From Escherichia phage Ec_Makalu_002, in sequence record MN709127.1: DNA of 64,000 nucleotides, one strand, 5' to 3'. Both the position numbers and the translations under genes were made by a program. Below, in pieces: positions 6,784 through 58,188 of this stretch. The notes under the pieces were generated by a model that saw only the letters and a list, made by a program, of their open reading frames with translations, did not search any database and was not told the origin of the DNA. Position 1 is the stretch's first letter. Each line of letters opens with the position of its first letter.

Positions 6784-7554
6784 ATGAATATTATCCGAAT
6801 AAAACTACCGGAAGGTGTACAGCGATTTAAACCATTCACGGTAAAAGATTATAGAGATTTCCTTCTGGTGTCAACTGAAATTAAGATGAATCCAGAAGAA
6901 GAACAAACTATACTGGATGAGCTACTAGAAGAAATATATCCAGACGTAGACCCTGCATTTCGTGAATATATTTTCCTGAACGTTTTTACTAGCTCAATAG
7001 GTAAAACAAAGATACCGCTTTGCTTTACTTGCCCGACTTGCAACAAAGAAAGAAAAATGTTGCTCAACTTACAGGTCGAAGCACTAAAACCAATCGTTCT
7101 GGAGGCCGCAGGGCTTAAAATAACTTTCCGGTATGTGAAACCATCAACCGACTATGCAAAAACGTTTCTAGATGCGATAGAGCGTGTCTCTGATGGTGTT
7201 AATGATTATCTATGGACTGAATTACCGGAAGAAGTTAGAGATCAGGTTATCGATTCAATCTCATTTGCTGAATTTGAAGAAGTTGTTAAGCAGATGCACA
7301 CGATCAAGATCGAACAAAAGATATCTTGCTGTGAAAGTCATGACCTGAAATACATAGGTCTTCTTCCATTATTCAAATTGTTGTTGAATCCAGATGAGTT
7401 ATTCATCTTTTATCGAATAAACCATCTATTGGCAAAATCAAATTATTCTATCAGTGATCTTATGGACATGTTACCCGTCGAGAGAAACATTGCACTGACA
7501 CTGGTCGAGAAAGACGTAAAAGAGGCAAACAATGCAAAGAACGGGGTTTCCTAA
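6784..7554 (+). CDS. 51: baseplate hub assembly protein gp51
   Basis: 256 aa; first gene of the 51-27-28-29-48-54 block; synteny and size. Confidence 0.7.
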   Translation: MNIIRIKLPEGVQRFKPFTVKDYRDFLLVSTEIKMNPEEEQTILDELLEEIYPDVDPAFREYIFLNVFTSSIGKTKIPLCFTCPTCNKERKMLLNLQVEALKPIVLEAAGLKITFRYVKPSTDYAKTFLDAIERVSDGVNDYLWTELPEEVRDQVIDSISFAEFEEVVKQMHTIKIEQKISCCESHDLKYIGLLPLFKLLLNPDELFIFYRINHLLAKSNYSISDLMDMLPVERNIALTLVEKDVKEANNAKNGVS

Positions 7555-8641
7555 TGTCTCAATAAAACTTTATCAGGATTATGAGGCATTTCTAAATCAT
7601 CGCTTTATAGAATTGGGTGCTACCTTTGTTACAATGACTCTGCGTGATTCGATTCGTGGGGTGAACGAAGGATTGTTGCAATTCTATGATAATAAAGCGA
7701 TGCATACAAAATTAAACGGGCGGGAGATCATTCAGATTTCGTTATCTACTGCCAACACAGATGAAGTGTTCAACCGAATCTATGGGATCTCTCATAGTAA
7801 TGTAACGATTGACCAAAAATCCGACAACATTTTAACATTCCAGTTAAAGAGCTATCACGAAACACTAAACCTTAAATTTTCTCGCGCATTGACAAATAAC
7901 GCTGTTAATAACGTAACCAGTATGATTGATGCCATCTATAAGGAAGTCCCTTTATGGAAACCAGCTATAAAAGGTGATAACGTTGTTATTCCTCGTTGTC
8001 CGTGGGTTAGTACCATAAATGACTATATGGATTTTGTGAGGGCATACGGGCAAAGCGTAGAAACCGAGTCTTTCGTGTATTGTTGGGAAGATTTTGATGG
8101 TATAACTATAGCCGGACACGATACAATATTAAAAAATGAGCCAATACCAGCTATAATCTGTGAGCCTAGACTCATGGGGCAATTTATTGATATGTCACCT
8201 AATCTGATGGTTTTTAATTTCGAGTGGCAGACTAAGAGCAATGCTAAAGTTAAAAATTCATTTAACAATGTGACATACACGACTATTGATTTTGTTACTA
8301 AGCAGTATAATAAAATTGTTGTTGGTAACGGGGATAACATTGCTCATTTTGCACATGGTGGCGCTTATGGGGAGTTGACTTATAAGAATGCATTTTTGGA
8401 AGGTTCTAAACTTGCCACAATAGAACAGTATGATTCATATGCTACCGCCGTGTGTCATGGTAATTTTTCATTGCGTCCTGGTATGGTAATTCGATTCTTT
8501 GACGAGAAGCAACAAGCACGCAATGATTTTATTGTTGACGAAGTGGTGCATGAAATTAGCCGAGAACAATCATTAACTCACCTGTATATGATCGGTAACA
8601 GCGAAGAATTACAGGAAGTCAAATTTGAAGGTAAGATATAA
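7532..8641 (+). CDS. 27: baseplate hub protein gp27
   Basis: N-terminus and HTKLNGREI...ISHSNVTIDQKSDNILT match remembered T4 gp27. Confidence 0.9.
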   Translation: MQRTGFPNVSIKLYQDYEAFLNHRFIELGATFVTMTLRDSIRGVNEGLLQFYDNKAMHTKLNGREIIQISLSTANTDEVFNRIYGISHSNVTIDQKSDNILTFQLKSYHETLNLKFSRALTNNAVNNVTSMIDAIYKEVPLWKPAIKGDNVVIPRCPWVSTINDYMDFVRAYGQSVETESFVYCWEDFDGITIAGHDTILKNEPIPAIICEPRLMGQFIDMSPNLMVFNFEWQTKSNAKVKNSFNNVTYTTIDFVTKQYNKIVVGNGDNIAHFAHGGAYGELTYKNAFLEGSKLATIEQYDSYATAVCHGNFSLRPGMVIRFFDEKQQARNDFIVDEVVHEISREQSLTHLYMIGNSEELQEVKFEGKI

Positions 8642-9159
8642 TGACAGAAACTAAACCTATGTTAAAATTTGTTGTTCCTGTAAAAACTTTAGAGATAAAC
8701 GGGAAACATATCAAGATCCCAAAAATGGGTATTAAGCAACATCGATTATTAAAAGATGTTCGTAGCTGCGATGAAACATTAAAGATTCTTCTTGATTCAA
8801 TCTGCCCTGGGTTAAACGCTGCTGAGTCTGAATTGGTTATGCTTAATCTTTGTGCGTTTAATGGTAAATGTCTGGAAGAAAAAGACGGTCTTAAACTATC
8901 TGATGTGTATATTTGTACAGAAACTGAATTTGATTTAAATGGCAAAACATTTAAATTTAAAAATCCGATGTATACTTCTGACCCCATTATCGATGACGCT
9001 GATTTCTTGAGTCATCATTATCACGATCCTAGTGTAGACTTCCATGACTTCCCAGCTTTTATTATGGATTGGGCTACAGGATTAAGAAAAACTATTGCAC
9101 TGGATACGCCGGAAGGTACTATCTATGGTGGAATTAACATATTGGATCGCCTATCATGA
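8641..9159 (+). CDS. 28: baseplate hub distal protein gp28
   Basis: 172 aa; INGKHIKI...KQHRLLKD...CDETL matches T4 gp28. Confidence 0.85.
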   Translation: MTETKPMLKFVVPVKTLEINGKHIKIPKMGIKQHRLLKDVRSCDETLKILLDSICPGLNAAESELVMLNLCAFNGKCLEEKDGLKLSDVYICTETEFDLNGKTFKFKNPMYTSDPIIDDADFLSHHYHDPSVDFHDFPAFIMDWATGLRKTIALDTPEGTIYGGINILDRLS

Positions 9160-10889
9160 ATGACGCATTAACATCATTTCGCGGGATGCGCAAGGAAGCG
9201 GAAGAAAATCCGATTGATAAACTTAACAAATTAGATAAACTTGATTCTATTGATAATTTGCAAGCCGCTACCGAATTGGTGGCGGAGACAGTAGAACAAA
9301 AATCTAATGAAGTTGTTGGTGCGGTAGAGGATAACACCGCAGCCAATGAATTAACGGCAGAGAATACACAATCTACCGCTGGCAATACCCAAAAAACTTA
9401 TGAAGAATTGCAAAAACTCAATAATTTCTCTTCTCAGATGAATGAGAAATTACGTGGTTTTGGCGTTATGATGGAACGTAGATTTGGTGTTGTCAGTAAA
9501 ATGGCGAGCGGTATTGGTGCGATTGAAGAAGCACTGAAAAAACCGGAACAACCGCAAACAATGCCATCACCTCAGCCAGTTTTGCCTACTGTACCGGAAC
9601 AGCCTAATAATGACAACTATCAAGGTCTTCCAAAGAAAAAACCAGATGTTGATGACCGAAAGAAAAAGAACGCCACAGATAAGCGTAATGCGGATTCTAT
9701 GGAGAATCTTATTAAAGTTGTTCGTGGTGGATTTAAAGAAACCATAGGAATCTCTAATAAGGTCTTAGGGATGTTATTTAAGATCACCTTAACCGCAATG
9801 GCAGAAGCCGCAAAATGGGGTGCTATTTTGATGGGTATTGTTTTCGTCATTGATACCCTGATGGTTCATTTCAGATATTGGAGCGATTTATTCGAAACAA
9901 AATTCGATGATTTTATGGATAAGGCCGGAGAATGGGCTGGACCAATTAGTGATATTCTAACAACTATTCGTCAAGTTCGAGATTATTGGTCTAAAGGCGA
10001 ATATGGAGAATTAATTAAATCTCTTGTTATGGGTATTGGTGATGCATTCTATAAAACCTTTATCCAACTTGATCGAATTATCACTACTGGTATTGCTAAA
10101 ATTCTTCGCATGATTCCTGGTATGGGTGATTATGCCGATAAGTTAGAATATGGTGCTTTAAAATCTGCTGTCGCTCAAGGATATACGCCAAATGAAAGAG
10201 AACTCGAATTAATGGATAAGGTCGAGTCTGAACACGAAAAAGACAAGTATGGAGAGCGCACAGGGTGGACCGGAAAAGCCCGTGATATTGGCGAAGCTAT
10301 CGGGGATTCTATTAAGGATAAAGTTAACGAAGGTCTTGTTAGTCTGGGTTGGCGAGATCAAAAGGATGTTGACGCAGAGAAGCGACAAGAAGAATTAAAG
10401 CGCGGAGAATATGAGTCTGTTTCTGCTGAACAACGATCTGCTAGTCGTAAACTTAGAATTAAAAGTGAGGGCGCGATCAACAATATTAATGAAGTTATGG
10501 AGAATTTGAGCGGTGACTATGACAAAGAAAGAATGGGAGAGTTGAAAAAGGATATTGATGTTTACCGTGAGAAAGTTCAAGATCCTACATTAGTTGAAAG
10601 TGATCGTTCTCAGTTAGAGCGTCTTATTGAAAAATTTGATGAGATGTATGCTGATAAAACTAAGGGTGTTGTGCAAACACAGCCAGTTCCTGCAACTGAA
10701 ACGGAAACAGCAAAACAAGCGGAACGTACTGAACAAATGCAGAAACAAGCTGCAATCCAGCAACAAACGACAAATCAGACCTCAAACGTAAATAATACAC
10801 AAATTGTAACAAACAATAGAACTATTAAACAGGGTGCACCAACAACTAGAATTGATGCCCCAGGTACAATTAATATGGGGAACTTTTAA
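9156..10889 (+). CDS. 29: baseplate hub / tail-length determinant gp29
   Basis: 577 aa; synteny, size, ATGA-coupled to gp28. Confidence 0.8.
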   Translation: MNDALTSFRGMRKEAEENPIDKLNKLDKLDSIDNLQAATELVAETVEQKSNEVVGAVEDNTAANELTAENTQSTAGNTQKTYEELQKLNNFSSQMNEKLRGFGVMMERRFGVVSKMASGIGAIEEALKKPEQPQTMPSPQPVLPTVPEQPNNDNYQGLPKKKPDVDDRKKKNATDKRNADSMENLIKVVRGGFKETIGISNKVLGMLFKITLTAMAEAAKWGAILMGIVFVIDTLMVHFRYWSDLFETKFDDFMDKAGEWAGPISDILTTIRQVRDYWSKGEYGELIKSLVMGIGDAFYKTFIQLDRIITTGIAKILRMIPGMGDYADKLEYGALKSAVAQGYTPNERELELMDKVESEHEKDKYGERTGWTGKARDIGEAIGDSIKDKVNEGLVSLGWRDQKDVDAEKRQEELKRGEYESVSAEQRSASRKLRIKSEGAINNINEVMENLSGDYDKERMGELKKDIDVYREKVQDPTLVESDRSQLERLIEKFDEMYADKTKGVVQTQPVPATETETAKQAERTEQMQKQAAIQQQTTNQTSNVNNTQIVTNNRTIKQGAPTTRIDAPGTINMGNF

Positions 10890-11947
10890 TGAAAATTAGT
10901 GTTATCAATGATGCCGTTGATAGCTTTAAAGCGGGGGTTAAAACCTCCGCTGGTTTTACCTCAAAAAATAAAGGGAAAACATTAACCGCTCAATTCCCCG
11001 CTGAACGTGCTAGCGGTAATGATGCTAGCGGTTATTATATCAACGACTTATATAATAATGGTCTGTTATTCACTGCATACGATTATACATCTCGTACTAC
11101 CGGATCGTTGCGTGATTTCAGGAAAAAGAAAAATGTTGCTAGTGGTTTTGGTGGTAGCGTTAATATCGCTGGTTTTGATTTAAATTTGGGTGGGAGAAAT
11201 GCTGCATTTGACCGAGAGGCAATTGCTAATATTCTTCTTCCTCGTAGTCAATCTGACGTTGACGCTGCTAGCCATAAGTTTAATGATGTTGGTGAATCTG
11301 TTATTTCTCGCGGTGGTGGTACTTTAGGAGGTGCTCTTTCTAATATGGCATCTACTGCCGTTTTTGGTGGTATCGAAAGTATTACTGGTGGATATCTTGC
11401 CGATCACGGTGAACAGATTTATAATACTGCTCGAAGCATGTATGCTGGTGCTGACGCACGAACTAAAAACTACGTATGGCATCTAACCCCACGTAGTATT
11501 GAAGACCTTCGCAATATTCTAATCATATACGAAACGTTTTTAGAATTGTCTTATGGTTCTAGTGGTATTTCCAGCACCGCAAAAGAATTAAAAGCGGAAG
11601 TTGATGCGTGGTATAAAAATACACTATTGAGAAAATCCACCCCAGAGGAAGCGAAGAGAAACGATACTCTGTTTGAAGGGATCACCGATTTTCTATCAAA
11701 CGTAATTACTGTATCTAACCCGACAATATGGATGATCTCTAACTTCGGCAAGCGTACATCGTTTGAAGGGCGTAGCGATGCATTTGGTCCCGCTCAGATC
11801 TCAAGTGTACGTCTGGACAAGTCGCCTGATGGTAAGTTTAATGGCCTTGCTATTTCTCCTAACTTGCCGAGTACCTTTGTTCTGGAAGTATCATTTAGAG
11901 AGATCTTGACACTTTCCCGTGGTACTATATTTGGGAGTGCGGCATAA
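10889..11947 (+). CDS. 48: baseplate tail-tube junction protein gp48
   Basis: 352 aa; synteny and size. Confidence 0.8.
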   Translation: MKISVINDAVDSFKAGVKTSAGFTSKNKGKTLTAQFPAERASGNDASGYYINDLYNNGLLFTAYDYTSRTTGSLRDFRKKKNVASGFGGSVNIAGFDLNLGGRNAAFDREAIANILLPRSQSDVDAASHKFNDVGESVISRGGGTLGGALSNMASTAVFGGIESITGGYLADHGEQIYNTARSMYAGADARTKNYVWHLTPRSIEDLRNILIIYETFLELSYGSSGISSTAKELKAEVDAWYKNTLLRKSTPEEAKRNDTLFEGITDFLSNVITVSNPTIWMISNFGKRTSFEGRSDAFGPAQISSVRLDKSPDGKFNGLAISPNLPSTFVLEVSFREILTLSRGTIFGSAA

Positions 11948-12879
11948 TGTTTGATTTAAATGACTTTAACGAACAAGCCGCTAACCTTGACTTTCAGCGA
12001 TCTAACTTATTCAGCGTGGCATTTGCCACCACTCCAAGTAATAAGACACAAGCGATCCTAGAAAGTATGGGCGGTGCGGTATATGATATTATACCAAATG
12101 CATTAAATGACTATTTCGGGATTACTCGTGGTGATTATACTGACGCATTAACAAATCTTGCTGTACAGGGTGTTAGGCGTGCTGTTGATTCATCCGGTGT
12201 CAAAAAGTATCTTTTAGGTGCAATGTCATCCCGCGTAGTTCAATCTCTTCTGGGGCAATTTGATGTTGGTACATATGCGCTTGACTGGTTCAATATGGCA
12301 TATAAGACAAGCGGTCTTCTGGTGTATGCTGTTAAGGTTCCAGAAAACAGATTGAATTATGAAATAGACCGCAACCACAATGCGCCAAACATTCGAATTA
12401 CGGGACGTGATTTTGATCCGCTTGTATTGAGCTTTAGAATGGACTCTAGCGCATCAAACTATAGAGCAATGCAGGATTGGGTTAACTCAGTAGAAGACCC
12501 CGTTACAGGGCTTCGTGCGCTTCCTGTTGACGTTGAAGCAGATATTCAGGTTAACTTACATAACCGAATGGGAGTTCCTCACACGATCATGATGTTTAAT
12601 GGTTGTGTTCCTGTTGGTGTGAGTGCACCGGAATTAACCTATGAAAATAACAACGAAATTACAACATTCGATGTTACTTTTGCGTATAGGACTATGCAAA
12701 CTGGTGCTGTAGGAGAGCAAGCCGCGCGAGAATGGATTGAGGATAAGGCAATAAACGCAATAACAAACACTTTCGGCAACAATTTACTTGATAGTGGGTT
12801 ATCTGCTGCTGGTAATGCTTTATCGCGTCTAAATGGCGTCGGTGGGCGTGTGGTGAATACTGTCACTAACTGGTTCTGA
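11947..12879 (+). CDS. 54: baseplate tail-tube initiator gp54
   Basis: 310 aa; synteny and size. Confidence 0.8.
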   Translation: MFDLNDFNEQAANLDFQRSNLFSVAFATTPSNKTQAILESMGGAVYDIIPNALNDYFGITRGDYTDALTNLAVQGVRRAVDSSGVKKYLLGAMSSRVVQSLLGQFDVGTYALDWFNMAYKTSGLLVYAVKVPENRLNYEIDRNHNAPNIRITGRDFDPLVLSFRMDSSASNYRAMQDWVNSVEDPVTGLRALPVDVEADIQVNLHNRMGVPHTIMMFNGCVPVGVSAPELTYENNNEITTFDVTFAYRTMQTGAVGEQAAREWIEDKAINAITNTFGNNLLDSGLSAAGNALSRLNGVGGRVVNTVTNWF

Positions 12880-12885
12880 TAAGCG

Positions 12886-12919
12886 AAAGGCGGGGGACAA
12901 TCCCCCGCCTTTTTATTTT
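12886..12919. terminator. strong GC-rich hairpin terminator (bidirectional)
   Basis: AAAGGCGGGGGACAATCCCCCGCCTTTTTATTTT between convergent gene 54 and lipoprotein gene. Confidence 0.6.
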
Positions 12920-13398
12920 GCTAAATCATTGCAATATTTTAGTGCCTTAGTTTGAAACTCTGCGCTGTTAAGTTCTTCATAACGGTCATAATCACCGTTT
13001 AATGCTGCCTTTCTTGCTTCTTGTTCTATCTGCATGTCAGACATGATAATACAACGATCCCGCGCTTTCATCTTCTCAAGTTGTATAGACTCTTCTTGTT
13101 GCTTGCGCAATTCTTCTTGATGCTTCTTTTCTTCTCGTGCTTTCTCTTCCCGCGCTTCTTTGATTGCATCTTTGAACATCTGCGTTTGTGGTGCTAAACC
13201 AACTTTAACGCGATCCACGTCTCGACGTTCCATTTTAGAAATAAAACATGATTCGATCTGGTCATCGCTTGCATATGCTGCTTTACATTCACGAAGCAAG
13301 AAAACCGGATCTGATTTAGCATTCATCATAGCTTCCATGTTAGTACAACCAGTAAGCATGAATGCAGCCGCAAGACCAATCAGTTTAATCATTTTCAT
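12913..13398 (-). CDS. predicted lipoprotein (signal peptide, lipobox LTGC), coiled-coil rich
   Basis: MKMIKLIGLAAAFMLTGC N-terminus; Lys/Glu-rich middle. Confidence 0.55.
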   Translation of the reverse strand: MKMIKLIGLAAAFMLTGCTNMEAMMNAKSDPVFLLRECKAAYASDDQIESCFISKMERRDVDRVKVGLAPQTQMFKDAIKEAREEKAREEKKHQEELRKQQEESIQLEKMKARDRCIIMSDMQIEQEARKAALNGDYDRYEELNSAEFQTKALKYCNDLAK

Positions 13399-14219
13399 TT
13401 AGTCACCTCACCGAAAATTGTAAATTGTCTACGATTCTCATCGCCGAAAGATTCTACTACGTCGTTTACCTTGATGCAAGTCCCGCGCGGTAAAATTACT
13501 TCACATTCGCAAGGATTCCATGCAATAGACCCAACAACAAAACCTTTATGATCTTTTACGTCAATTACCCATGATACATTACAAGAATGTTGCATCTTTC
13601 CGGTCATTGATTCATATCGATTCTCACAATAAAGGCTAGTGCTGTTTGAAAGCCATCCTCCAAAGATGATCGGTGTCATGCTGGTCGATACAAAGTTTTT
13701 AAAGGTAAATTCCTTATCTTCAATAATACGCTCTATTGTCTGAATGTCAAGATGTTGACCGCGATAAAGAGTACCGTTTAACTTTTCGGTTTTATCCATG
13801 ACACAATCCATCAAATCGACAATCTCTGATATCTCATCGGTCATGTCTTCTTCCCCTAAGAGAGCACCATTTACCCATTCGTATTGTTCAGACACATAAT
13901 CGCAGATTGCATTATATTCTGCTGGGGTTATGTTGTTATGTTTGTAATGTTTGAATACATTATCTCCAAAATCTTCGGAATGTACTTCATACATCACATT
14001 AATGATTTTCTTGACAAATCCATAATCTTGCGTTTCTTGCTCAAGGAAACGGATAACTTTCACGTAATCATCAAAGTTAATATGATCGCTGATCATTTCA
14101 GTGATCATGTAACCATTAATCCCCTCAATGCCATATGTTTCGATGTAATTATCCATACGTTCCATCATTGATTCGCGTGATTCTTCGGAAAGGCGAAAAT
14201 CCTGTAATTTCTTGAACAT
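13395..14219 (-). CDS. ADP-ribosyltransferase, Alt-like paralog
   Basis: LYRG...FVSTS...ECEVILPRG (R-S-ExE motifs) parallel the ART region of adjacent Alt. Confidence 0.7.
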   Translation of the reverse strand: MFKKLQDFRLSEESRESMMERMDNYIETYGIEGINGYMITEMISDHINFDDYVKVIRFLEQETQDYGFVKKIINVMYEVHSEDFGDNVFKHYKHNNITPAEYNAICDYVSEQYEWVNGALLGEEDMTDEISEIVDLMDCVMDKTEKLNGTLYRGQHLDIQTIERIIEDKEFTFKNFVSTSMTPIIFGGWLSNSTSLYCENRYESMTGKMQHSCNVSWVIDVKDHKGFVVGSIAWNPCECEVILPRGTCIKVNDVVESFGDENRRQFTIFGEVTK

Positions 14220-14240
14220 TTTAAACCTCCCATATAACAG

Positions 14241-14271
14241 AAAACGGGGCTAGTATAAAACTAGTCCCCGT
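14241..14271 (-). terminator. terminator hairpin after alt
   Basis: ACGGGGACTAGTTTTATACTAGCCCCGT followed by TTTTCTGTT on minus strand. Confidence 0.45.
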
Positions 14272-14298
14272 TTGAGTCAACCATTATTTCTTAAAAAA

Positions 14299-16350
14299 TT
14301 ACATTTTAAATTTATCCGGCATAGCGTCTACAGACACAAGATCAGCGATAAGCTGACGTAGAGTTGCCTTATCTGCTTTCTTACGTTCGGTTTTAGCTTC
14401 GGTAATGAAGCTGGAGAAAGACAGGTCAGAAGCAGGTTTAACAACACCTTCACGGATGAATGCATCACCGTCCGCGATCATCTCACCAGATTCTTGTAAT
14501 GCTGCCAGTTCATTTTTGTTCATAATATGTGCCTCGATGTAATAAGTTTCTTGTGAATCCGTCGATGCCGTAGCACGAGTTACCGTATCAAAGGATAACA
14601 CAACACCGCGAGGAAGTAAAATCTCGCATTCTTTGTAAGCAAATGCTTTGTTACCTACTGGCAATACAGGGATGTTTTCCGCGCCAGCAATGGAGAAAGC
14701 AACATTAGCGCCACCTTCACCGCGAGATCCCGCCATAGAATCAACACCAGCAACGGCACTAGCCACGTTTGCATTCCAGCCACCAAAAATATTAGGTGCA
14801 AGGGAAGTGCTCACATAGTTTTTAAAGTAAAACGCTTTTTGCTTACGTGCAGTTTCCCACATTTGCGACCGGAAGTCCATACCACGATACAAGATAGTAC
14901 CTGGATCAAGTTTAACACCATAGTTAGCAAATGCGTTATCCAGTGCATCACACATCTTGACCAATTCTTCTGGGTCTGCGATGCCTTCAAACTCTTCCAG
15001 CTTACGGTCGGTTAGGAAGTTGTTCATATTGATGTATGCTGCATCCGCATATTCGCTCAACACAAAACCTTCCGCGCCAGGCAGATCAAGATCAATATCT
15101 GCCATCATTTCACCCATGTTGCTAGCAATTGCTTCAAACATACCGGAAGCAACATTACGCAGGGCATCGGTTTTAATCTGCGTGATGTGACTACGCAGCA
15201 TTTCAGCTTTTACATCTGCTGGCATAGACTGGTCGACGCGATCCATTGCCAGGGCGGTGATCTTGTTTTCGAATACTTCCTCGCTCATGATTTCTTTTAA
15301 GCGTTTGATTGATGCTGCGATGACTTCCGCAGACAACGGATCATATTGATCCTGAACTTTTACCAGTTCGCTTACTGCATATTTTGCATCGGCTTCGCTT
15401 TCAAAAATAGTACGCATGAAACCATAGCGAGTGATAATATCACTTGTCCAGTCATTCAGAGAACGGGCGGTTGAACGTTCTAAGGCTTGACGGTCAATCA
15501 GAGTATTAAACTGTTTCTTAGGTTCTGCTTCGGTGATATCTTCTTCCGGTTTAAGATTAATTTTTTCTGGATGATTCACATAGTCGCTGTTATAGGTCGC
15601 TTGAGTTTTCAGCATTTCTTCTTTAGTCAAACGAGATTTAGCCGCTACGCGTTGTTCTGCTTCCGCGTTTCGTTCTTCTTCCGACACAAGACTAGCCGCA
15701 TACGCCTCATCTTTAGTCAGAGATTCACCAGTAGCCTTAGATACCCAGCGATCACCTAAATCACTTTCTACTTTAGTGAACAGGGATTCATCGAGTTTAA
15801 TCCCTTTAATCTTATCAATCGCCATCCCGCGACGTTTGACAACAACTAAAGCGATCTTTTTGCTGGTCATTACTTCCTGCTGGAATACTTCAAACTTCGG
15901 TGTACGACGCACCAAACGCTCTATAACGCGCTTAACCAGTTCGGTCTTACCTTTCATGCGGGATACGTTAAAACGGAACATAACAGCGTCTAATTGCGCT
16001 TTACGGGCTGTTTCCATGACCACATCAAAAGCACTTGACATAACTGCAATCGGGTTATCTCCTAGACCATTTTTAAGCTGTACAATACGACCGCTTTTGT
16101 TCATTTCGCACAGTACAACATGTGCGGTCTTGTCACCCATACGAATGATTTTAGGTGTTTTGTTGGTGAAGTTACAAAGACGGACAATCACATCTTTATC
16201 GCGTGTCTGTACTGCAAAAAGCTGTTTAGGATTCTGCTTAGGCTTTAAGCACTGTACCGGAGCAATACTGCCAAAGTTTTCTTCCTCTTCCGTCAACAGC
16301 CATTTCTCGAAAGATTCAATCATTAGATCGTCGATTTCTAAGTTAAACAT
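14299..16350 (-). CDS. alt: Alt ADP-ribosyltransferase (head-packaged)
   Basis: 683 aa (T4 Alt about 682); ART motifs YRG/STS/ECEILLPRG; position after gene 54. Confidence 0.85.
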   Translation of the reverse strand: MFNLEIDDLMIESFEKWLLTEEEENFGSIAPVQCLKPKQNPKQLFAVQTRDKDVIVRLCNFTNKTPKIIRMGDKTAHVVLCEMNKSGRIVQLKNGLGDNPIAVMSSAFDVVMETARKAQLDAVMFRFNVSRMKGKTELVKRVIERLVRRTPKFEVFQQEVMTSKKIALVVVKRRGMAIDKIKGIKLDESLFTKVESDLGDRWVSKATGESLTKDEAYAASLVSEEERNAEAEQRVAAKSRLTKEEMLKTQATYNSDYVNHPEKINLKPEEDITEAEPKKQFNTLIDRQALERSTARSLNDWTSDIITRYGFMRTIFESEADAKYAVSELVKVQDQYDPLSAEVIAASIKRLKEIMSEEVFENKITALAMDRVDQSMPADVKAEMLRSHITQIKTDALRNVASGMFEAIASNMGEMMADIDLDLPGAEGFVLSEYADAAYINMNNFLTDRKLEEFEGIADPEELVKMCDALDNAFANYGVKLDPGTILYRGMDFRSQMWETARKQKAFYFKNYVSTSLAPNIFGGWNANVASAVAGVDSMAGSRGEGGANVAFSIAGAENIPVLPVGNKAFAYKECEILLPRGVVLSFDTVTRATASTDSQETYYIEAHIMNKNELAALQESGEMIADGDAFIREGVVKPASDLSFSSFITEAKTERKKADKATLRQLIADLVSVDAMPDKFKM

Positions 16351-16417
16351 TTTATATCCTCTAGTTGATAACCTATAAACCTATATTTATGAAAAAGGGG
16401 CTTAACACCCCCATTTA

Positions 16418-16913: not shown

Positions 16914-16942
16914 AGTATAGGGGATCGCCGATCCCCTGTCAA
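16914..16942 (-). promoter_or_regulatory. sigma70-like early promoter with palindromic spacer (TTGACA-GGGGATCGGCGATCCCC-TATACT)
   Basis: Consensus -35, 17-nt GC-rich palindromic spacer with two GATC, -10 TATACT. Confidence 0.5.
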
Positions 16943-16949
16943 CAACTTT

Positions 16950-17504
16950 TTAGTTATTTTTTAATTGCTCATCTTGCAATAATGCAATCACATGCTGGCG
17001 ATGTTCTTCCGATTGAGGAACACCGAAAAAGTTTGTTTTGTAGAAATACTCTAATCGGTCTTCTCGTGTGCTCTCTTCCATCATGATCGCGGGTAGTCCA
17101 AGATTTCGGAAACGTCGCTTTTCTGCTGGCGTAAAATCACTGTAATACAACATAGAATCATCATTACCAGCAATGCTAAACTCATCCTTCATAAAGGAGA
17201 ATATTGCGTTTAAACGCTGTTTACCGTCCACGATTTCGATCTCATAGCGAGAGCCATCATCAATCTTAGCCATTGCGATAGCACCAACCGGAAAATCATT
17301 AATCAGGTTTTCGATAAACATACGTTTGTTTTCGGTGTCCCATACCAAAGGACGCTGATAATCTGGGTTCATGTTGATATAGCCATCTTCTAACCACGCC
17401 TCATAAACAGAGATGACAAAGTTTTTAGTATTGGTATAGTAACGGCGTTTAGGCGTTAAACGGTTCATGTTATAGTCTCCTGAATGGATCATCACGTAAA
17501 TCAA
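16950..17504 (-). CDS. DUF262 / ParB-like nuclease-domain protein (GmrS N-terminal-like), short form
   Basis: PDYQRPLVWD and DGKQRLNAI motifs; track start is TTG, ATG at about 17468 with AGGAG RBS more likely (172 aa). Confidence 0.65.
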   Translation of the reverse strand: MIYVMIHSGDYNMNRLTPKRRYYTNTKNFVISVYEAWLEDGYINMNPDYQRPLVWDTENKRMFIENLINDFPVGAIAMAKIDDGSRYEIEIVDGKQRLNAIFSFMKDEFSIAGNDDSMLYYSDFTPAEKRRFRNLGLPAIMMEESTREDRLEYFYKTNFFGVPQSEEHRQHVIALLQDEQLKNN

Positions 17505-17802
17505 TATCTTTTAAGAACTCATCCCATGAATGGCGGATAATGTTCTTAATTCTCCAGATAAGCGCAGGGATTGAACGCTCTCCCATCTGGAAGTAAGGAT
17601 CATATGATCCATATGCCCAATATGCTACTACAATTCCACAATCGGCGCAATAATATTCTATTTCACTTGCTGGCGACCAAAGTCCATCAATATGATCACG
17701 GATCTTGCTTTCGATGTTATGGCTATGGCAATCAGGGCAACGGATGCAATGACCTTGTTTATCGTAATTTGACGTTAGCGAATACTTAAACAATCTCATC
17801 AT
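17470..17802 (-). CDS. zinc-ribbon protein (two CxxC pairs)
   Basis: CIRCPDC ... CADCG; ATGA-coupled to upstream gene. Confidence 0.5.
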   Translation of the reverse strand: MMRLFKYSLTSNYDKQGHCIRCPDCHSHNIESKIRDHIDGLWSPASEIEYYCADCGIVVAYWAYGSYDPYFQMGERSIPALIWRIKNIIRHSWDEFLKDIDLRDDPFRRL

Positions 17803-18515
17803 AGATCCTTATTGGCTTCAAATACTGCCTTTGCGAATCCTCGCGGGGTAAGTGACCTGATAGTCTTTGTTCTGGTTCCTTTCCCGCCTAGCTTAGAATG
17901 CTGTTTACTGTACCCTTTATTAATCTGCAACGGTTTCTTTTCTGGCATTATAAAGCCTTGTCCGGTCCATAAGCAAGTCTTTTTCGGGTACATATCACGG
18001 GCGGCAATATACTCAGGAAACGTAGGATGCTTATCATCTTCCGGCAAATAACCGCCATATTCCCACGGATGGAACATGTAATCAGGCTTACGCCACATGC
18101 TAGAGATAACGCTTACAGGATTCTCTATCATGTAGGGAACTCCTAGCCATTCACCCAAATAAGCGGTTATTTTAGCTGCCCTTACATCATGAACTTGAAT
18201 TAATGGTCCTTGTTCTCGTTTCTTTCGTTCAAAGTGCGCAGCGCCACTAACAGCTAAATTGGTGCATGGTGGGAATGCAAAGATAATATCCGGTTTCCCC
18301 CATTCAAGGTCCATTGCTCTTTCCAGCCAATTTAAATCAATCCATGTGTTTACATATGTAATGTTTGGATGTTCAAATCGGGTATTATATTTTTTGTATG
18401 TACCGTGGTCGCCATCGTCAGCATTAAAGCAGATCACCTTATGACCTGCTTTAGCCCATTCTAACCCCATTATCCCCGATCCGTCAAAGTTGCAGAATAT
18501 TAATTTTTGTTTCAT
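17799..18515 (-). CDS. C5-cytosine-methyltransferase-like protein (SAM-dependent MTase fold, no obvious target-recognition domain)
   Basis: Motif I-like FDGSGIMG, motif IV-like FPPC with catalytic Cys, motif VI-like IENP; 238 aa. Confidence 0.5.
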   Translation of the reverse strand: MKQKLIFCNFDGSGIMGLEWAKAGHKVICFNADDGDHGTYKKYNTRFEHPNITYVNTWIDLNWLERAMDLEWGKPDIIFAFPPCTNLAVSGAAHFERKKREQGPLIQVHDVRAAKITAYLGEWLGVPYMIENPVSVISSMWRKPDYMFHPWEYGGYLPEDDKHPTFPEYIAARDMYPKKTCLWTGQGFIMPEKKPLQINKGYSKQHSKLGGKGTRTKTIRSLTPRGFAKAVFEANKDL

Positions 18516-19045: not shown

Positions 19046-19074
19046 ATTGTAGGGGAGTTATCCTCCCCTGTCAA
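19046..19074 (-). promoter_or_regulatory. sigma70-like early promoter for the 19005-16950 operon (TTGACA-GGGGAGGATAACTCCCC-TACAAT)
   Basis: -35/-10 at 17-nt spacing; palindromic spacer; conserved leader. Confidence 0.5.
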
Positions 19075-19088
19075 CACTTTTTATAAAA

Positions 19089-19289: not shown

Positions 19290-19318
19290 ATTATAGGGGA
19301 TCTCCCGATCCCCGTCAA
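19290..19318 (-). promoter_or_regulatory. sigma70-like early promoter (TTGACG-17-TATAAT)
   Basis: Palindromic GC spacer GGGATCGGGAGATCCCC. Confidence 0.5.
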
Positions 19319-19332
19319 CAACTTTTTTAAAA

Positions 19333-22371: not shown

Positions 22372-22695
22372 TTATTTGTTAATTTCCGGTGCGTTGCTCG
22401 GATAGTAACCTTCTTTAACACCCAGATATTTTGCAACCATTCCGGTGATCTTCTGTGCTACTACGATATCGAATTTCAGGTAGTCTTCACCGTGGTTTGC
22501 TACAATGTATGCTTCGCATTCTGCTTTAGTCTGGAACATTTTTGATTCTCCTATATCTCGTTGGTATGTGTGCATTATAGGGGATCGGTGATCCCCTGTC
22601 AACAACTTTTTATGATTTTTCTTTATATGCGTATTGAATAAATTGGTCCGCCACTTCGTCGGCTTTTTCGGGTTTGACTTCTGACGCCAGGACAA
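22372..22695 (-). CDS. hypothetical small protein, paralog B of the 19089-19256 gene
   Basis: Upstream part of track ORF is read-through of the leader (MHTY..GES); real gene probably 22372-22539 (55 aa, 49/55 identical to paralog A). Confidence 0.5.
   Translation of the reverse strand: MSWRQKSNPKKPTKWRTNLFNTHIKKNHKKLLTGDHRSPIMHTYQRDIGESKMFQTKAECEAYIVANHGEDYLKFDIVVAQKITGMVAKYLGVKEGYYPSNAPEINK
22574..22602 (-). promoter_or_regulatory. sigma70-like early promoter (TTGACA-GGGGATCACCGATCCCC-TATAAT)
   Basis: Consensus hexamers, 17-nt palindromic spacer. Confidence 0.5.
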
Positions 22696-23490: not shown

Positions 23491-23706
23491 TTACATAACA
23501 ATCACGCCAGCCGTTGAAAGTTGATGTTTCAACTGAGCATTTTCTGCTACTGTCAAATCAATGATTTCTTGTGACGCTGCAATCATATAGCCATTGGTGA
23601 TATTGTTTTGCATCAGTTCAATGGTTTCTTCGTTGTAGCGGATTTTAGCGATGATTTCGTTGAAGTTCATGTTTGATTCTCCTAGTTCGTTTCGGTATGT
23701 GTGCAT
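23491..23706 (-). CDS. hypothetical small protein
   Basis: Track ORF includes leader read-through; likely ATG at about 23670 (59 aa, MNFNEIIAKIRY...). Confidence 0.45.
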   Translation of the reverse strand: MHTYRNELGESNMNFNEIIAKIRYNEETIELMQNNITNGYMIAASQEIIDLTVAENAQLKHQLSTAGVIVM

Positions 23707-23734
23707 TATAGGGGATCTCCCGACCCCCTGTCAA
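23705..23734 (-). promoter_or_regulatory. sigma70-like early promoter (TTGACA-18-TATAAT)
   Basis: Palindromic GC spacer GGGGGTCGGGAGATCCCC. Confidence 0.45.
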
Positions 23735-23747
23735 CAACTTTTTTGAA

Positions 23748-34413: not shown

Positions 34414-34643
34414 TATCCGACAACCTCAAAACATTTATCATCAGGAAGAATAGCCCATTCTACGCCGTATTCATCCTTAACGTAGTAGCAAGTCCCATCA
34501 TGTCGAGCATCATATTCATCACCGACAACAAAGCTATCAGCTAGCTCAAAATCTACAGCAACACATTTTAATTTTGCCATAATAAAATCCTCATTTGTTT
34601 TTGATGGTTGCATTATAGCGGGGATTTCTCCCCGCGTCAACAC
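34413..34643 (-). CDS. hypothetical small protein
   Basis: Track ORF starts upstream of the promoter; likely ATG about 34580 (MAKLKCVAVDF..., 55 aa). Confidence 0.45.
   Translation of the reverse strand: MLTRGEIPAIMQPSKTNEDFIMAKLKCVAVDFELADSFVVGDEYDARHDGTCYYVKDEYGVEWAILPDDKCFEVVG
34612..34640 (-). promoter_or_regulatory. sigma70-like early promoter (TTGACG-CGGGGAGAAATCCCCGC-TATAAT)
   Basis: Consensus -10, 17-nt palindromic spacer. Confidence 0.5.
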
Positions 34644-51554: not shown

Positions 51555-54323
51555 ATGGCAGATTTAAGCAGAATCCAATTTAAACGTACTAGCACTAAAG
51601 GCCGTCGACCTGATGCTGGTACGATGAATCCGGGGGAATTGGCAATCAACCTTGCGGATCAATATCTTCTTACTAAAAATGATTCCGGCGCTATTATCAA
51701 TTTAAGTTGTCCTCCGGTTTATGACCGTGATGTTACAATGGCGGGTAAGGTTAAAGGAAATAATTATATTTTAAGTAAAACCGCCAATTATCTGGAAGAC
51801 CAGACAGCGAGAGATCTTAACTACTTTGGTGCTTTCCGTACCAATAGTCTAGATGGACTCATGGATCTAACCCTTAACGTTCCTCACTCTTCCGGTAAAG
51901 CGCATGGTCGAGGATTTACTTTCCGTTATGGGACTGGCGGATCTCGTGTTGAAACCTATGGTTTTGATGTTCAGGGACAAAAAGCATTTAGTTATAAAAT
52001 GTATCATGAAGGGGATAAACCGACTCCCTCAGAATTGAACGTTTATAGCAAACAAGAAGTTGACCGTATGTTTGTTAAAACCGTTAAACTTGCTACAGTT
52101 CCTGTTGATATCGTTGACGGTTATTTTAAATTAGCAACTGCATTGATTCCGCAAAACGGTCGTAGTGTATTTTTCCGTATTCATGGTGGTAACGGATATA
52201 ACGTTACTGCATACGATCAAGTTGATATTGTAGAAATTGTTATTCGCAGTGGAAATAATCGTCCTAAAGGTGTTAACGTTATTGCATACCGCCGAAATAC
52301 AAACAAAGCATTTGATGTTTTGGCTGTTAATACTTCTGGTGATAACTATGATATCTACGTGAAATATCAGCGTTACACTGATAACGTTATTGTTGAATTT
52401 GGTAAAAGTGTTGATGTTGATCTGGTAGTCCATGACGTTCCAGACTTTGTTGTTGATCGTCCTGTTGGCGATAATGTTATTGGCGGTCGCGCGGTAACTC
52501 TTTTTAACACCGAAAACAAACGAGGTGTGTTGAGTTTTGACGATAACACACAAAATAGTTATGATATTGTTCACTTGAGTAATGATAAAGGTACTGGACG
52601 GAAATATATTCGTAAATTCCGTAGTAACTATAATGAAATGATCTGGCATGAGACTGTTCAAGGTTCTACTTATCGACTCGCCACGGGTAGTACAGATGCT
52701 CAGGAAATTATAACTATTGAATCTAGTAGCTCAATTGCTGGAACTCATAAAGGTAATATTATTTCTGGTCGTATGCTGTTAAATGGCGGATCTAATGCCA
52801 TTACACTACGCCGACCTGCTGGTCAATCTAATCATATTGCGTTTCAAGATAATCGTACTGGAGATATTACCCGTCAAGGTTGGCTGGGCTACGCAAACGC
52901 CGATACTGACGTTTTTGAATGGTATAGTGATGTAGGTGGCAGTTCTATTCGTCAACATATCGACGGACAGATCGAATTTCAGACAGGTAACATGAAGCGA
53001 GTCTATACCAACGGTCAATTCATTTCTTTATATGCTGATGGCTTCCGTACTGTATATGGTAACTATGGTTCATGGTGGCGAAATGACGGCAGCAACGTTT
53101 ATCTGATGAGCACAAAATCAGGCGACACTATGGGTCCGTGGAATACCTTTAGGCCGTTCATCTATAGCCTAGCCAATGGAAACGTTACACTAGGTGGTAG
53201 CGACGCTGGCAACCATTTAATGCGTCTCAACAATGAAAATCGTCAAGTAGAAATAAATGCAACAACACATTTAGGGTCTCGATTATATTGGGAAGGTAGC
53301 GAAGGTTCTGCATCTAGATTTTTTATTAAGAATTGGGGTGATGGAACTTCTCGCGCTCAGGTGTGGGAACTTGCAGACGAAACAAGCTATCATCTATATT
53401 CTCAGCGTGATTCTAACGGTTCGATTCAATTCCGAGTTGCTGGTAGTTTAGAAACGGGTGGTCGTGCTCAGATAAATGGTGATTTGGTGGTTACTAATGT
53501 TTTGCGTACCAATAACCAAATTCAGATTTATCGCGATAACAACAAAGAAATCTGGTTTAAGGATGCTGATGGTACTAACCGTGGTGTTATCTGGGGTGGC
53601 GCTGACGGTAAAATGAGACTGCGCAATTATTCTAGCGGAGAGTATGACCATGTGTTTGAAGCTGGTATGATTCGCCTTGAGCGTGGTTATGCTAATGGAC
53701 AAGGTGCTGGCTTGATTCGTGGTGAGGTTCAAGGTGGAGCGTGGTCCGACTGGAGAACTCGTGCTGCTGGTTTATTAGTTGACTGCCCTAATGCTCAAAC
53801 TTCCGCATATAACGTATGGAAAGCGACCAAATGGGGATTAGACCACATCGCGGCAATGGGCGTTCATATTCCTAGCGGTGTTGTTGGTAACTCTATTGCG
53901 CGTTTGCATGTTGGTGGCACTAACTTTGATTTTAGCGCTACTGGTGACTTTACCGCAGGTCGTAACGGTTCGTTTAACGATGTGTACATTCGTTCTGATG
54001 CTCGCCTGAAAATCAATAAGGAAGAGTATAAAGAGAATGCCACCGATAAAGTTAATCGCTTGACTGTGTACACCTACGATAAGGTTAAGTCTTTGACGGA
54101 CCGCACTGTTATCGCTCATGAAGTTGGTATTATTGCTCAGGATCTTGAGAAAGAATTGCCGGAAGCAGTAACAACTTCTAAGGTCGGCGATCCTGATAAG
54201 CCAGAAGAGATCTTAACAATTTCTAACTCTGCTGTCAACGCTCTTTTAATTAAGGCGTTTCAGGAAATGAGCGAAGAATTGAAAGCCGTTAAAGCTGAAC
54301 TAGCGGAACTTAAAAAGAATTAA
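51555..54323 (+). CDS. 37: long tail fibre distal subunit gp37 with C-terminal intramolecular chaperone-like domain
   Basis: N-terminus matches T4 gp37; C-terminus SDARLKINKEE...IIAQDLEKELPEAV...coiled coil resembles S74-type auto-cleaving chaperone. Confidence 0.85.
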   Translation: MADLSRIQFKRTSTKGRRPDAGTMNPGELAINLADQYLLTKNDSGAIINLSCPPVYDRDVTMAGKVKGNNYILSKTANYLEDQTARDLNYFGAFRTNSLDGLMDLTLNVPHSSGKAHGRGFTFRYGTGGSRVETYGFDVQGQKAFSYKMYHEGDKPTPSELNVYSKQEVDRMFVKTVKLATVPVDIVDGYFKLATALIPQNGRSVFFRIHGGNGYNVTAYDQVDIVEIVIRSGNNRPKGVNVIAYRRNTNKAFDVLAVNTSGDNYDIYVKYQRYTDNVIVEFGKSVDVDLVVHDVPDFVVDRPVGDNVIGGRAVTLFNTENKRGVLSFDDNTQNSYDIVHLSNDKGTGRKYIRKFRSNYNEMIWHETVQGSTYRLATGSTDAQEIITIESSSSIAGTHKGNIISGRMLLNGGSNAITLRRPAGQSNHIAFQDNRTGDITRQGWLGYANADTDVFEWYSDVGGSSIRQHIDGQIEFQTGNMKRVYTNGQFISLYADGFRTVYGNYGSWWRNDGSNVYLMSTKSGDTMGPWNTFRPFIYSLANGNVTLGGSDAGNHLMRLNNENRQVEINATTHLGSRLYWEGSEGSASRFFIKNWGDGTSRAQVWELADETSYHLYSQRDSNGSIQFRVAGSLETGGRAQINGDLVVTNVLRTNNQIQIYRDNNKEIWFKDADGTNRGVIWGGADGKMRLRNYSSGEYDHVFEAGMIRLERGYANGQGAGLIRGEVQGGAWSDWRTRAAGLLVDCPNAQTSAYNVWKATKWGLDHIAAMGVHIPSGVVGNSIARLHVGGTNFDFSATGDFTAGRNGSFNDVYIRSDARLKINKEEYKENATDKVNRLTVYTYDKVKSLTDRTVIAHEVGIIAQDLEKELPEAVTTSKVGDPDKPEEILTISNSAVNALLIKAFQEMSEELKAVKAELAELKKN

Positions 54324-54636: not shown

Positions 54637-55293
54637 ATGCAAGTTTCTGAAAAAGGGAAAGACTTTGCTATCTCAAATGTCCTGCGCGCTATTTTCACAA
54701 CTAAAAGCACGGAGTTGCTCGTACTTCGTGTTTTTGCTGCCGTCGTGTTGTCCATATTAGCATTTGTCGTTTATAGTAAAAACGAGTTATTCGCGCTTTA
54801 TAAAGAGACTCGTTATGAGACTTATGCTCACATTCTCCAGGTAGAGAAAGACCGCAATTTTGATAATGCAGCACAGGAGCAGTTACAGATAGTTCATGTA
54901 TCGGCTGATGCCGATTTTTCTGCTGTTTTTAGTTTTCGTCCGAAAAACCTAAACTATTTTGTTGATTTGGTGGCATATGAAGGAAAGCTACCGCATACAA
55001 TCGATGAAAAAAATTTAGGCGGATTCCCTATCAATAAAACGAGTGAAGAATATCGTAGGCATCTTTTAGGTAAATCATATTTTACCGATAAAGATTTCCA
55101 GTATATTCCATCAAGAGAAAAGAAATTAGAGAATATCGATATAGGTTTCATGTATTCTTGTCCTATATTCAATCTCGATAATGTCTATTCTGGTAGTATC
55201 GCCATTTCATGGAAGAATAAACCGGATATTGACATTGAGAATTTAGATACTCTTTGCAATCAATCTGCCAGAATCCTCGGAAGGATTAGATAA
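54637..55293 (+). CDS. t: holin
   Basis: 218 aa; one N-terminal TM; EQLQIVH.SADADFSAVFSFRPKNLNYFVDLVAYEGKLP nearly identical to T4 T. Confidence 0.9.
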   Translation: MQVSEKGKDFAISNVLRAIFTTKSTELLVLRVFAAVVLSILAFVVYSKNELFALYKETRYETYAHILQVEKDRNFDNAAQEQLQIVHVSADADFSAVFSFRPKNLNYFVDLVAYEGKLPHTIDEKNLGGFPINKTSEEYRRHLLGKSYFTDKDFQYIPSREKKLENIDIGFMYSCPIFNLDNVYSGSIAISWKNKPDIDIENLDTLCNQSARILGRIR

Positions 55294-58150: not shown

Positions 58151-58179
58151 AGTATAGGGGATCACCGATCCCCTGTCAA
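58151..58179 (-). promoter_or_regulatory. sigma70-like early promoter (TTGACA-GGGGATCGGTGATCCCC-TATACT)
   Basis: Same palindromic-spacer architecture as 16914 and 22574. Confidence 0.45.
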
Positions 58180-58188
58180 CAACTATTT

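Follow-up and report, generated by a model that had tools for sequence, protein, structure and literature searches.

Escherichia phage Ec_Makalu_002 carries two small genes between gene 54 and alt, one encoding an ADP-ribosyltransferase (ART) related to Alt and the other a lipoprotein precursor, and this analysis compares the locus with the phage systems that resemble it most. The stretch analyzed, referred to as the window, comprises 64,000 nucleotides (nt) of the phage genome (sequence record MN709127.1). The three ARTs of phage T4 are a model for viral reprogramming of the cell, and each has distinct targets. T4 Alt is an injected RNA-polymerase ADP-ribosyltransferase, while ModA and ModB are synthesized after infection from the tandem genes modA and modB. 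The gap between gene 54 and alt in T4 contains only alt.-1 and alt.-2 (61 and 67 amino acids, aa) and alt.-3 (96 aa); the first two copy Alt residues 1-117 and hold no catalytic domain. JS98 has two full-length Alt genes (alta/altb) together with alt.-3, 44RR has two full-length Alt genes in tandem, and a Raoultella phage has one Alt and an open reading frame (ORF) resembling alt.-3. The contents of T4, JS98 and 44RR therefore indicate that duplication of alt at the gp54/alt junction is widespread. T4 also makes two early envelope or periplasmic proteins, Imm (superinfection immunity) and Sp (a periplasmic inhibitor of gp5). T5 Llp and the Cor proteins of phi80, T1 and N15 are superinfection-exclusion lipoproteins, and as phage-encoded lipoprotein precursors they offer a functional analogy only; T5 Llp is made early in a lytic phage. 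In RB49, RB49ORF183c has been listed among the alt paralogous duplications (Nolan et al., 2006; PMC1524935), and cassettes of a promoter and a stem-loop, called PeSLs, have been defined in RB49 and phi1 (Arbiol et al., 2010; PMC2839356) and treated again by Comeau et al. (2014; PMC4122927).

The gp54-alt junction in Krischvirus

Along its entire length, the window is 96.8-99.8% identical in DNA sequence to Krischvirus genomes, represented by 58 records. Ec_Makalu_001 and Ec_Makalu_003 are the closest genomes, followed by RB49, Phi1, JSE, GEC-3S and others, and judged by these matches the window is Krischvirus DNA, from a T4-like coliphage of the RB49/Phi1/GEC-3S group. As originally predicted, gp54 and alt flank the two small genes, both of which are encoded on the minus strand:

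11947-12879, plus strand: gp54 (PF06841 and phrog_45)
12885-12913, both strands: bidirectional intrinsic terminator between the convergent gp54 and lipoprotein genes
12913-13398, minus strand: gene for the 161-aa lipoprotein precursor (phrog_16112)
13395-14219, minus strand: gene for the 274-aa ART, orthologue of RB49ORF183c (phrog_15144, PF03496)
14299-16350, minus strand: full-length alt (683 aa) as parent paralogue of the ART gene (end-to-end match to phrog_802, E=1e-179; PF03496)

The stop codon of the ART gene and the start codon of the lipoprotein gene overlap as ATGA. Both proteins match PHROG families from end to end, ART with phrog_15144 (E=1e-195; labeled 'ADP-ribosyltransferase') and the lipoprotein with phrog_16112 (E=4e-108; labeled 'unknown function'), and both genes are present in 58 of 58 Krischvirus records. 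Compared with a sister lineage, both are under purifying selection, with ratios of nonsynonymous to synonymous substitution (dN/dS) of 0.09 for ART and 0.14 for the lipoprotein. Because of these matches, their universal presence and the purifying selection, the two ORFs are genuine genes and not chance ORFs.

The original prediction also stated that T4 has only small alt-adjacent ORFs here, and alt.-1, alt.-2 and alt.-3 indeed include no counterpart of either gene. T4 alt.-3 was considered as a counterpart of the lipoprotein gene and rejected, as it has no signal peptide and is unrelated in sequence. To call the pair 'inserted' between gene 54 and alt describes its position correctly; the wording is misleading because many T4-like phages have duplicates of alt at this junction.

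All complete contigs recovered have the gene order Alt, ART (271-282 aa), lipoprotein (155-174 aa) and convergent gp54, and shorter or cut contigs are compatible with this order. The synteny persists at 45% ART identity and for the most distant lipoprotein found, and the ART stop and lipoprotein start overlap or abut in every lineage found. On balance, we lean slightly towards reading the locus as a self-contained early two-gene cassette of Krischvirus that encodes an ART and an outer-membrane lipoprotein.

Parts of this picture were already known. Both genes are annotated and belong to full-length PHROGs, and the paralogy of ART was published in 2006 (PMC1524935). RefSeq labels the 274-aa protein ADP-ribosyltransferase, and the 161-aa protein is named lipoprotein by one submitter (phage W115) and in UniProt (KFS-EC). 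A literature search for functional, proteomic or transcriptomic data on the two genes returned just the 2006 genome note. New here are the synteny of the ART-lipoprotein pair in every relative found and the conservation of a PeSL-driven two-gene module. New as well are the precise cassette exchange of the mature lipoprotein, the negative co-variation tests, and the finding that no Imm or Sp is detectable in the genus.

The ADP-ribosyltransferase and its relation to Alt and Mod

ART is a protein of 274 aa, 32 kDa and pI 4.6 that matches Pfam PF03496 (ADPrib_exo_Tox) with 58.1 bits, well above the curated cutoff of 23.4 bits (E=1e-15; profile positions 2-187 of 196). Its catalytic motifs are encoded as follows:

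13761-13763, minus strand: codon of the catalytic Arg153 in a YRG motif, invariant in alignments including the Alt domain
13680-13688, minus strand: codons of Ser178-Thr179-Ser180, an STS motif, invariant and aligned with the STS of Tre1
13500-13508, minus strand: codons of Glu238-Cys-Glu240 in the ARTT loop, an ExE motif of the arginine-specific type, invariant and aligned with the ExE region of SpvB and Tre1

The original prediction had described a second Alt-like ART with a complete R-S-ExE core and had suggested looking for loss of the catalytic Arg or Glu on alignment. R153, STS178-180 and E238/E240 are all present, and they are unchanged and in the correct order in nine of nine aligned sequences, which comprise a few standalone homologues (45-82% identity, drawn from 5.8 billion proteins) and the catalytic part of the window's Alt. 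The AlphaFold (AF2) model of ART is confident, with a mean predicted local distance difference test (pLDDT) of 85 and a predicted template modeling score (pTM) of 0.83. Foldseek matches this model to Vis, C3bot2, Certhrax, iota Ia and CDTa, all with probability 1.00 (E=4e-11 to 1e-8), and with target-normalized TM scores of 0.6-0.67 for Vis, C3bot2, iota Ia and CDTa. Of the PDB entries compared by sequence, Tre1, SpvB and Vis match best, with Tre1 on top.

C3, Vis, iota Ia and CDTa are thus the nearest structural matches, and the ExE motif of ART resembles that of their arginine-specific members. However, sequence identity to these bacterial toxins is just 15-20%, ART has a larger helical N-terminal region (residues 1-145) that it shares with Alt, and it lacks a secretion or translocation component. 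Motifs and modeled fold place ART in the R-S-E clade, in the Alt/VIP2 family, with an intact catalytic core and a predicted C3/Vis-like fold. It is very probably an active enzyme, and because of the ExE motif, arginine-specific ADP-ribosylation is the most likely activity.

ART covers only positions 331-602 of phrog_802, the Alt family. The N-terminal region of about 330 aa is not found in ART, and the leader L(N/T)E(V/L)FD, common to full-length Alts, and the C-terminal tail of Alt are also absent. Identity is 31% over 181 aa to residues 413-593 of T4 Alt (E=4e-23) and 37% over 109 aa to residues 487-593 of the window's own Alt. In related contigs, PF26846 (Tevenvirinae_ADPRT) is recorded on Alt genes and not on the ARTs of about 275 aa. 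Alt and ART have homologous catalytic domains, the YRG, STS and ExE motifs and the genomic neighborhood in common, and by these comparisons ART is not an Alt orthologue but a freestanding copy of its catalytic half. It shares its locus and its origin by tandem duplication with the alt duplications of T4, JS98 and 44RR. However, the copies in JS98 and 44RR are full length and the T4 remnants are non-catalytic, whereas the Krischvirus copy consists of the catalytic half with its own promoter.

Since alt.-1 and alt.-2 illustrate how alt remnants accumulate at this locus in T4, the 274-aa ORF could likewise be a decaying duplication without enzymatic function. We consider this highly improbable. 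The dN/dS of ART ranges from 0.05 to 0.09, which argues for a maintained gene, and the protein is full length and at least 97.4% identical across all 58 Krischvirus records. The invariant catalytic residues, the confident model of the catalytic fold and the retention of the gene with its own conserved promoter down to 45% identity also speak against a remnant.

ART was also considered as a Mod orthologue, and this was rejected. In blastp comparisons ModA gave E=4.8 and ModB no match, and the genus has a separate Mod-type gene, even though ModA and ModB are like ART in size class, in predicted early expression and in synthesis after infection. This Mod-type gene, of 167 aa, lies beside srd outside the window (9118-9621 in Makalu_001) and is closest to T4 ModB (E=8e-10). 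Where T4 carries the tandem pair modA and modB, Krischvirus has this one gene. By sequence comparison the phage therefore appears to have three ARTs like T4, with a different make-up of Alt, ART and the Mod-type enzyme. In the proposed two-gene cassette, ART would be made inside the cell early in infection as an arginine-specific mono-ADP-ribosyltransferase, and would modify host (or phage) proteins alongside the single Mod-type ART and an Alt that presumably arrives with the virion.

Transcription of the two-gene unit

The alt-ART gap is 79 nt long and contains, in order, an A/T-rich stretch, GGTTGACT, 17 nt, TATACT, GGGAGG and the ATG. The signals in this gap and upstream of alt are:

14252-14281, minus strand: early sigma70-type promoter GTTGACT-N17-TATACT with A/T-rich upstream sequence, scan hit with 10 of 12 matches
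14242-14273, minus strand: terminator half of the PeSL, a stem-loop over the -10 box with a U-run after it, from RNA folding
14226-14231, minus strand: Shine-Dalgarno sequence GGGAGG of ART, 6 nt before the start codon, read from the sequence
16384-16412, minus strand: terminator (16396-16412) followed by CATAAATA (16384-16391), about 34 nt upstream of the alt ATG

The arrangement of A/T stretch, GTTGAC, stem-loop, Shine-Dalgarno sequence and start codon within a gap of about 80 nt equals the published PeSL architecture in its '-10-overlapping' variant. In the published cassettes the stem-loop is located between the two promoter boxes or over the -10 box, and both strong promoter activity and termination resembling that of rrnB-T1 have been measured for other PeSLs (PMC2839356). 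The main text of that paper does not mention the PeSL before ART.

Five lineages with ART proteins of 45-62% identity all keep the -35 box, the -10 box and their spacing unchanged. The stem-loop has a predicted folding energy of -20.6 kcal/mol (z=-2.5). Across these lineages 97.8% of the cells in the stem pair, a fraction that drops to about 44% in slid controls. The changes at both variable pairs are compensatory, although only five distinct sequences were available. Promoters of this type are also frequent elsewhere in the window, with 28 sites of the form GTTGAC-N17-19-TAnnnT compared with 2.1 in shuffled sequences (both strands), and 27 of the 28 lie on the minus strand, which is the early-gene strand and on which the class is enriched 13-fold. 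The element before ART is thus predicted to be an active PeSL cassette.

Examples of the other minus-strand promoters are found at 16914-16943, 19046-19075, 19290-19319, 22574-22603, 23705-23735, 34612-34641 and 58151-58180. Many of these promoters hold a GGGGATC...GATCCCC stem-loop in the spacer, as in the PeSL cassettes known from RB49 and phi1.

Transcripts that arrive from alt contain the whole hairpin and would therefore terminate, while those from the PeSL promoter start within the 3' arm and would therefore escape termination. The PeSL may accordingly end transcription of alt and start that of the two overlapping genes, the second of which has its own Shine-Dalgarno sequence, GAGGTG. 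At the other end, the bidirectional terminator at 12885-12913 would close the unit. It has a 13-bp stem with 8 GC pairs, folds with -22.9 and -25.1 kcal/mol on the two strands (z=-4.4 and -4.5), and is annotated on both strands in GEC-3S.

The signals upstream of alt are different. No sigma70-type promoter was found upstream of alt, and CATAAATA corresponds to the T4 late-promoter motif with one mismatch. The late signal TATAAATA was not found within the ART/lipoprotein locus. ART and alt therefore differ in their upstream signals, an early PeSL promoter in front of ART and a late-type motif in front of alt. These motifs suggest that Alt is made late and packaged, and that ART and the lipoprotein are made early.

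That ART is a second capsid-packaged effector, made late and delivered with the DNA like Alt, would fit its origin as an Alt paralogue adjoining alt, and ARTs of myovirus phages are often head-packaged (PMC9503650). An L-x-E tripeptide occurs in the N-terminus of ART, MFKKLQDFRLSE, which bears a loose resemblance to Alt leaders. The prohead-protease sites of T4 follow a consensus with an L-x-E-type tripeptide. However, [LI]xE within 20 residues is expected fairly often by chance, the N-termini are not conserved among ART homologues, and ART lacks both the N-terminal part of Alt and its leader. The terminator between alt and ART, the early promoter and the missing late motif also point away from packaging. 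A literature search found no Krischvirus virion proteome. With only the catalytic half of Alt and an early promoter, ART is probably made in the cell and not injected. We therefore regard packaging as unlikely, and an early ART that stays out of the virion as likely.

The lipoprotein precursor

The 161-aa protein was predicted to be a lipoprotein with an LTGC lipobox, and it has the features of a lipoprotein-type precursor. Its main parts are encoded as follows:

13345-13398, minus strand: signal peptide MKMIKLIGLAAAFM and lipobox L-T-G-C18, conserved in homologues
13054-13164, minus strand: charged central helix, aa 79-115, 73% E/K/R/D/Q, from composition and the AF2 model
12925-13062, minus strand: C-terminal module RDRC(I/L)IMSD...G(D/N)Y...S.E(F/Y)..K..YC with Cys116 and Cys156, made of invariant columns and kept in distant members

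The precursor starts with K2 and K5, followed by a hydrophobic stretch and the LTGC lipobox that ends at Cys18. A lipobox is retained in every homologue, in the variants LTGC, LNGC, MTGC, LVGC and LFGC, in all alleles and in distant members even at about 30% identity. Residue +2 is Thr in the window's copy and T, A or S in every homologue examined, never Asp. By the +2 rule of the E. coli Lol system, lipoproteins without Asp at this position are sorted to the outer membrane, and outer-membrane sorting is therefore predicted. The 161-aa protein is probably a true outer-membrane lipoprotein, a reading in which we have good confidence, and after export it would receive its lipid at Cys18 and be directed to the outer membrane.

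Beyond the lipobox, four Cys residues are invariant (Cys38, Cys51, Cys116 and Cys156), and these probably form two disulfides in the periplasm. The AlphaFold model is all-helical with pLDDT 88, and a 62-residue helix (72-133) is modeled at pLDDT above 90. The 'coiled-coil region' of the original prediction fared less well, since residues 79-115 of the predicted long helix are 73% charged or polar and the helix holds hydrophobic residues at only 27-33% of the a and d positions in its best heptad register. In other alleles this fraction is 0.31-0.50; these values come from a simple count and not from a dedicated predictor. The corresponding value for E. coli Lpp is 75%. A canonical coiled coil was therefore rejected, as heptad occupancy is too low, and the modeled helix looks more like a charged single-helix spacer of the ER/K type. 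Such a helix may hold the disulfide-stabilized C-terminal module out into the periplasm.

As an architectural analogy, Lpp also combines an outer-membrane lipid anchor with a long periplasmic alpha-helix. However, the two are not homologous, the central helix here lacks the heptad hydrophobics of Lpp, and the terminal modules with Cys residues are missing from Lpp. Searches of Pfam, NCBIfam and PADLOC with the lipoprotein gave no match, and fold searches returned only generic helices or members of its own family. The family is very small, with 11 matches to its profile among 1.84 billion cluster representatives, and one of the 11 is a spurious eukaryotic protein. Within a composite full Krischvirus genome only one other ORF has a credible lipobox. 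It is a 66-aa, Ala/Gln-rich ORF at 58777-58977 on the minus strand, which starts with MKKMIAIALLASAC and has a PeSL-like promoter (58748-58777) directly before it.

Allele exchange of the mature lipoprotein

At least three alleles of the mature lipoprotein exist (A, B1 and B2), with 32-50% identity among them. Class A, at least 93% identical to the window's copy, is found in 50 of the 58 records. The remaining 8 carry class B, which is about 30% identical to the window's copy and splits into B1 (Whisky and JK32) and B2 (E26 and others), with about 50% identity between them. Alleles A, B1 and B2 nevertheless adjoin ARTs that are 98-100% identical. The segment that is exchanged can be delimited in E26:

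12930-13365, minus strand: coding region of the mature lipoprotein, the exchangeable cassette, replaced in E26 by allele B2

The high-scoring segment pairs of blastn against E26 stop at 12929 and restart at 13366, with flanks of 97-98% DNA identity. The breakpoints therefore lie at the signal-peptide codons and the terminator and not within the PeSL, which distinguishes this exchange from the published PeSL cassettes. In the sister lineage, synonymous divergence is 0.15-0.19 for ART and Alt and 0.72-1.0 for the lipoprotein, gp54 and gp48, and this jump marks a recombination boundary at the ART/lipoprotein junction. Allele A is 43-48% identical to the lipoproteins of distant lineages but 34-38% identical to allele B, and the alleles are therefore old and were swapped in, not rapidly evolved in place. 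Gene-wide positive selection was rejected (dN/dS 0.14), and the diversity reflects old alleles that are swapped by recombination. The mature part of the lipoprotein is thus exchanged among phages as a cassette.

In Whisky (in the stretch retrieved, 7017-8695) and JK32, the gp29-gp48-gp54 baseplate block has diverged (53-87% identity) along with the B1 allele, and Alt and ART are still 98-100% identical in these phages despite the diverged block. The gp29 of Whisky is annotated as two ORFs.

The alleles also bear on whether ART and the lipoprotein work as a pair, either as a toxin with its immunity or antidote protein or as an enzyme with a dedicated partner. Many ART toxins have a downstream immunity gene, an example being Tre1-Tri1. 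The strict synteny and the overlapping or abutting stop and start codons would suit such a pair, as would Tre1 being the top PDB match of ART. However, divergent alleles beside nearly identical ARTs are the opposite of the co-variation expected of partners, and the breakpoints fall exactly between the two genes. Moreover, the lipoprotein has an export signal and therefore cannot neutralize a cytoplasmic NAD+-dependent enzyme. Toxin-immunity coupling was rejected on compartment and lack of co-variation, and a functional pair of any kind is extremely improbable. The word 'together' in the original prediction thus holds for shared expression, as co-transcription is predicted, and not for a joint mechanism.

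Possible function of the lipoprotein at the envelope

In the model that we favor, the lipoprotein would have its target in the envelope and would not depend on ART for its action; exclusion or protection is its most plausible role. We put forward this role only tentatively. The functional reading in the original prediction, a host-modifying effector and a surface-acting or superinfection-exclusion factor, is reasonable for ART and speculative for the lipoprotein.

One specific form of this role is a superinfection-exclusion factor of the Llp/Cor type, which would mask the receptor of the phage itself and whose alleles would match receptor specificity. The protein looks like an early outer-membrane lipoprotein of a lytic phage, as T5 Llp is, and it has a weak match to the Cor PHROG (phrog_1119, E=0.008). 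Allelic replacement is also what receptor switching would predict. However, the Cor match goes no further than residues 1-45, which comprise the signal peptide and a short piece after it, and PHROG profiles detected no homology of the mature domain to Cor or Llp. The Krischvirus protein is twice the size of Llp and Cor and all-helical, and its fold has no structural match to known exclusion proteins. T5 llp adjoins the gene for its receptor-binding protein. The lipoprotein gene, unlike llp, lies about 40 kb from the fiber genes.

A comparison of gp37 tips with lipoprotein alleles in nine phages also showed the two to be uncoupled. The tips of JK32 (B1) and GEC-3S (A) are 98% identical and those of Whisky (B1) and ECD7 (A) 96% identical, while JK32 and Whisky have the lipoprotein allele in common and gp37 tips that are just 66% identical. 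Receptor masking matched to the long tail fiber was therefore rejected, and we consider an Llp/Cor-type factor, neither linked to nor co-varying with the receptor-binding protein, to be unlikely. Matching to the tail lysozyme gp5, as in an Sp-like mechanism, is not indicated either; gp5 is at least 98.8% identical in all records whatever the allele and therefore does not explain allele diversity. In short, the lipoprotein alleles do not track ART, the gp37 tip or gp5; the genes compared with allele class were gp37, gp5, gp29, gp48, gp54 and ART.

The gp37 tip of the window itself is part of a tail-fiber mosaic that is independent of the rest of the genome. Its C-terminal region (53268-54320, plus strand) is 60-65% identical to the tips of Makalu_001 and Makalu_003, 93% identical to that of JEP8, and 86% identical to those of GEC-3S and JK32.

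A role in lysis, as an outer-membrane spanin (o-spanin), a unimolecular spanin (u-spanin) or a lysis-timing factor, was also weighed. The outer-membrane subunits of spanins are lipoproteins, and the protein is predicted to be periplasmic and helical. However, no adjacent or embedded inner-membrane spanin (i-spanin) ORF is present, and the C-terminus (...KALKYCNDLAK) has no transmembrane segment, so the protein is not a u-spanin. With 144 mature residues, an acidic composition and helical structure, it is also unlike the short Pro-rich o-spanins. Its promoter is early, the holin gene t (54637-55293) is far away, and the holin, which would be the periplasmic partner, shows 97-100% conservation in contrast to the divergent lipoprotein alleles. 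A lysis function is thus very unlikely.

The composite full Krischvirus genome has no detectable homologue of Imm or Sp, and their role is therefore left open in the genus. The lipoprotein has no sequence similarity to either protein, and Imm and Sp are not lipoproteins. A further-reaching and rather doubtful proposal is that the lipoprotein is the first member of a new family, restricted to the genus, whose early periplasmic proteins serve in exclusion or envelope protection and fill the Imm/Sp role, while in parallel ART is a third, intracellular ART with targets distinct from those of Alt and Mod. The lipid anchor and the rigid helix would then set the depth of the disulfide-bonded head module in the periplasm, and the alleles would specify different targets, e.g., the injection machinery of competitors or variable components of the host envelope.

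Other features of the window

A 252-aa ORF at 57135-57893 (minus strand) has a classical signal peptide (MKNIIAAIFLSATAIGANA) and an N-terminal segment containing Cys, and is probably secreted or periplasmic. Just upstream of the alt region, a 184-aa ORF at 16950-17504 (minus strand) contains the N-terminal domain of GmrSD (DUF262, PF03235; E=5e-20) and is retained at the equivalent position in relatives. It shares an early block with a 238-aa ORF (17799-18515, minus strand), whose counterpart in GEC-3S and E26 carries the annotation DNA methyltransferase.

Implications

Only a new mechanism of the lipoprotein, should it turn out to have one, would change current concepts. As a catalytic-domain-only Alt paralogue with an early promoter, ART offers a simple test of how the target range of an ART and its delivery route, by injection or by synthesis in the cell, evolve after duplication. 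The lipoprotein alleles are ready-made natural variants for tests of specificity. Krischvirus phages are components of therapeutic cocktails, and in such mixtures it matters in practice whether the members exclude one another.

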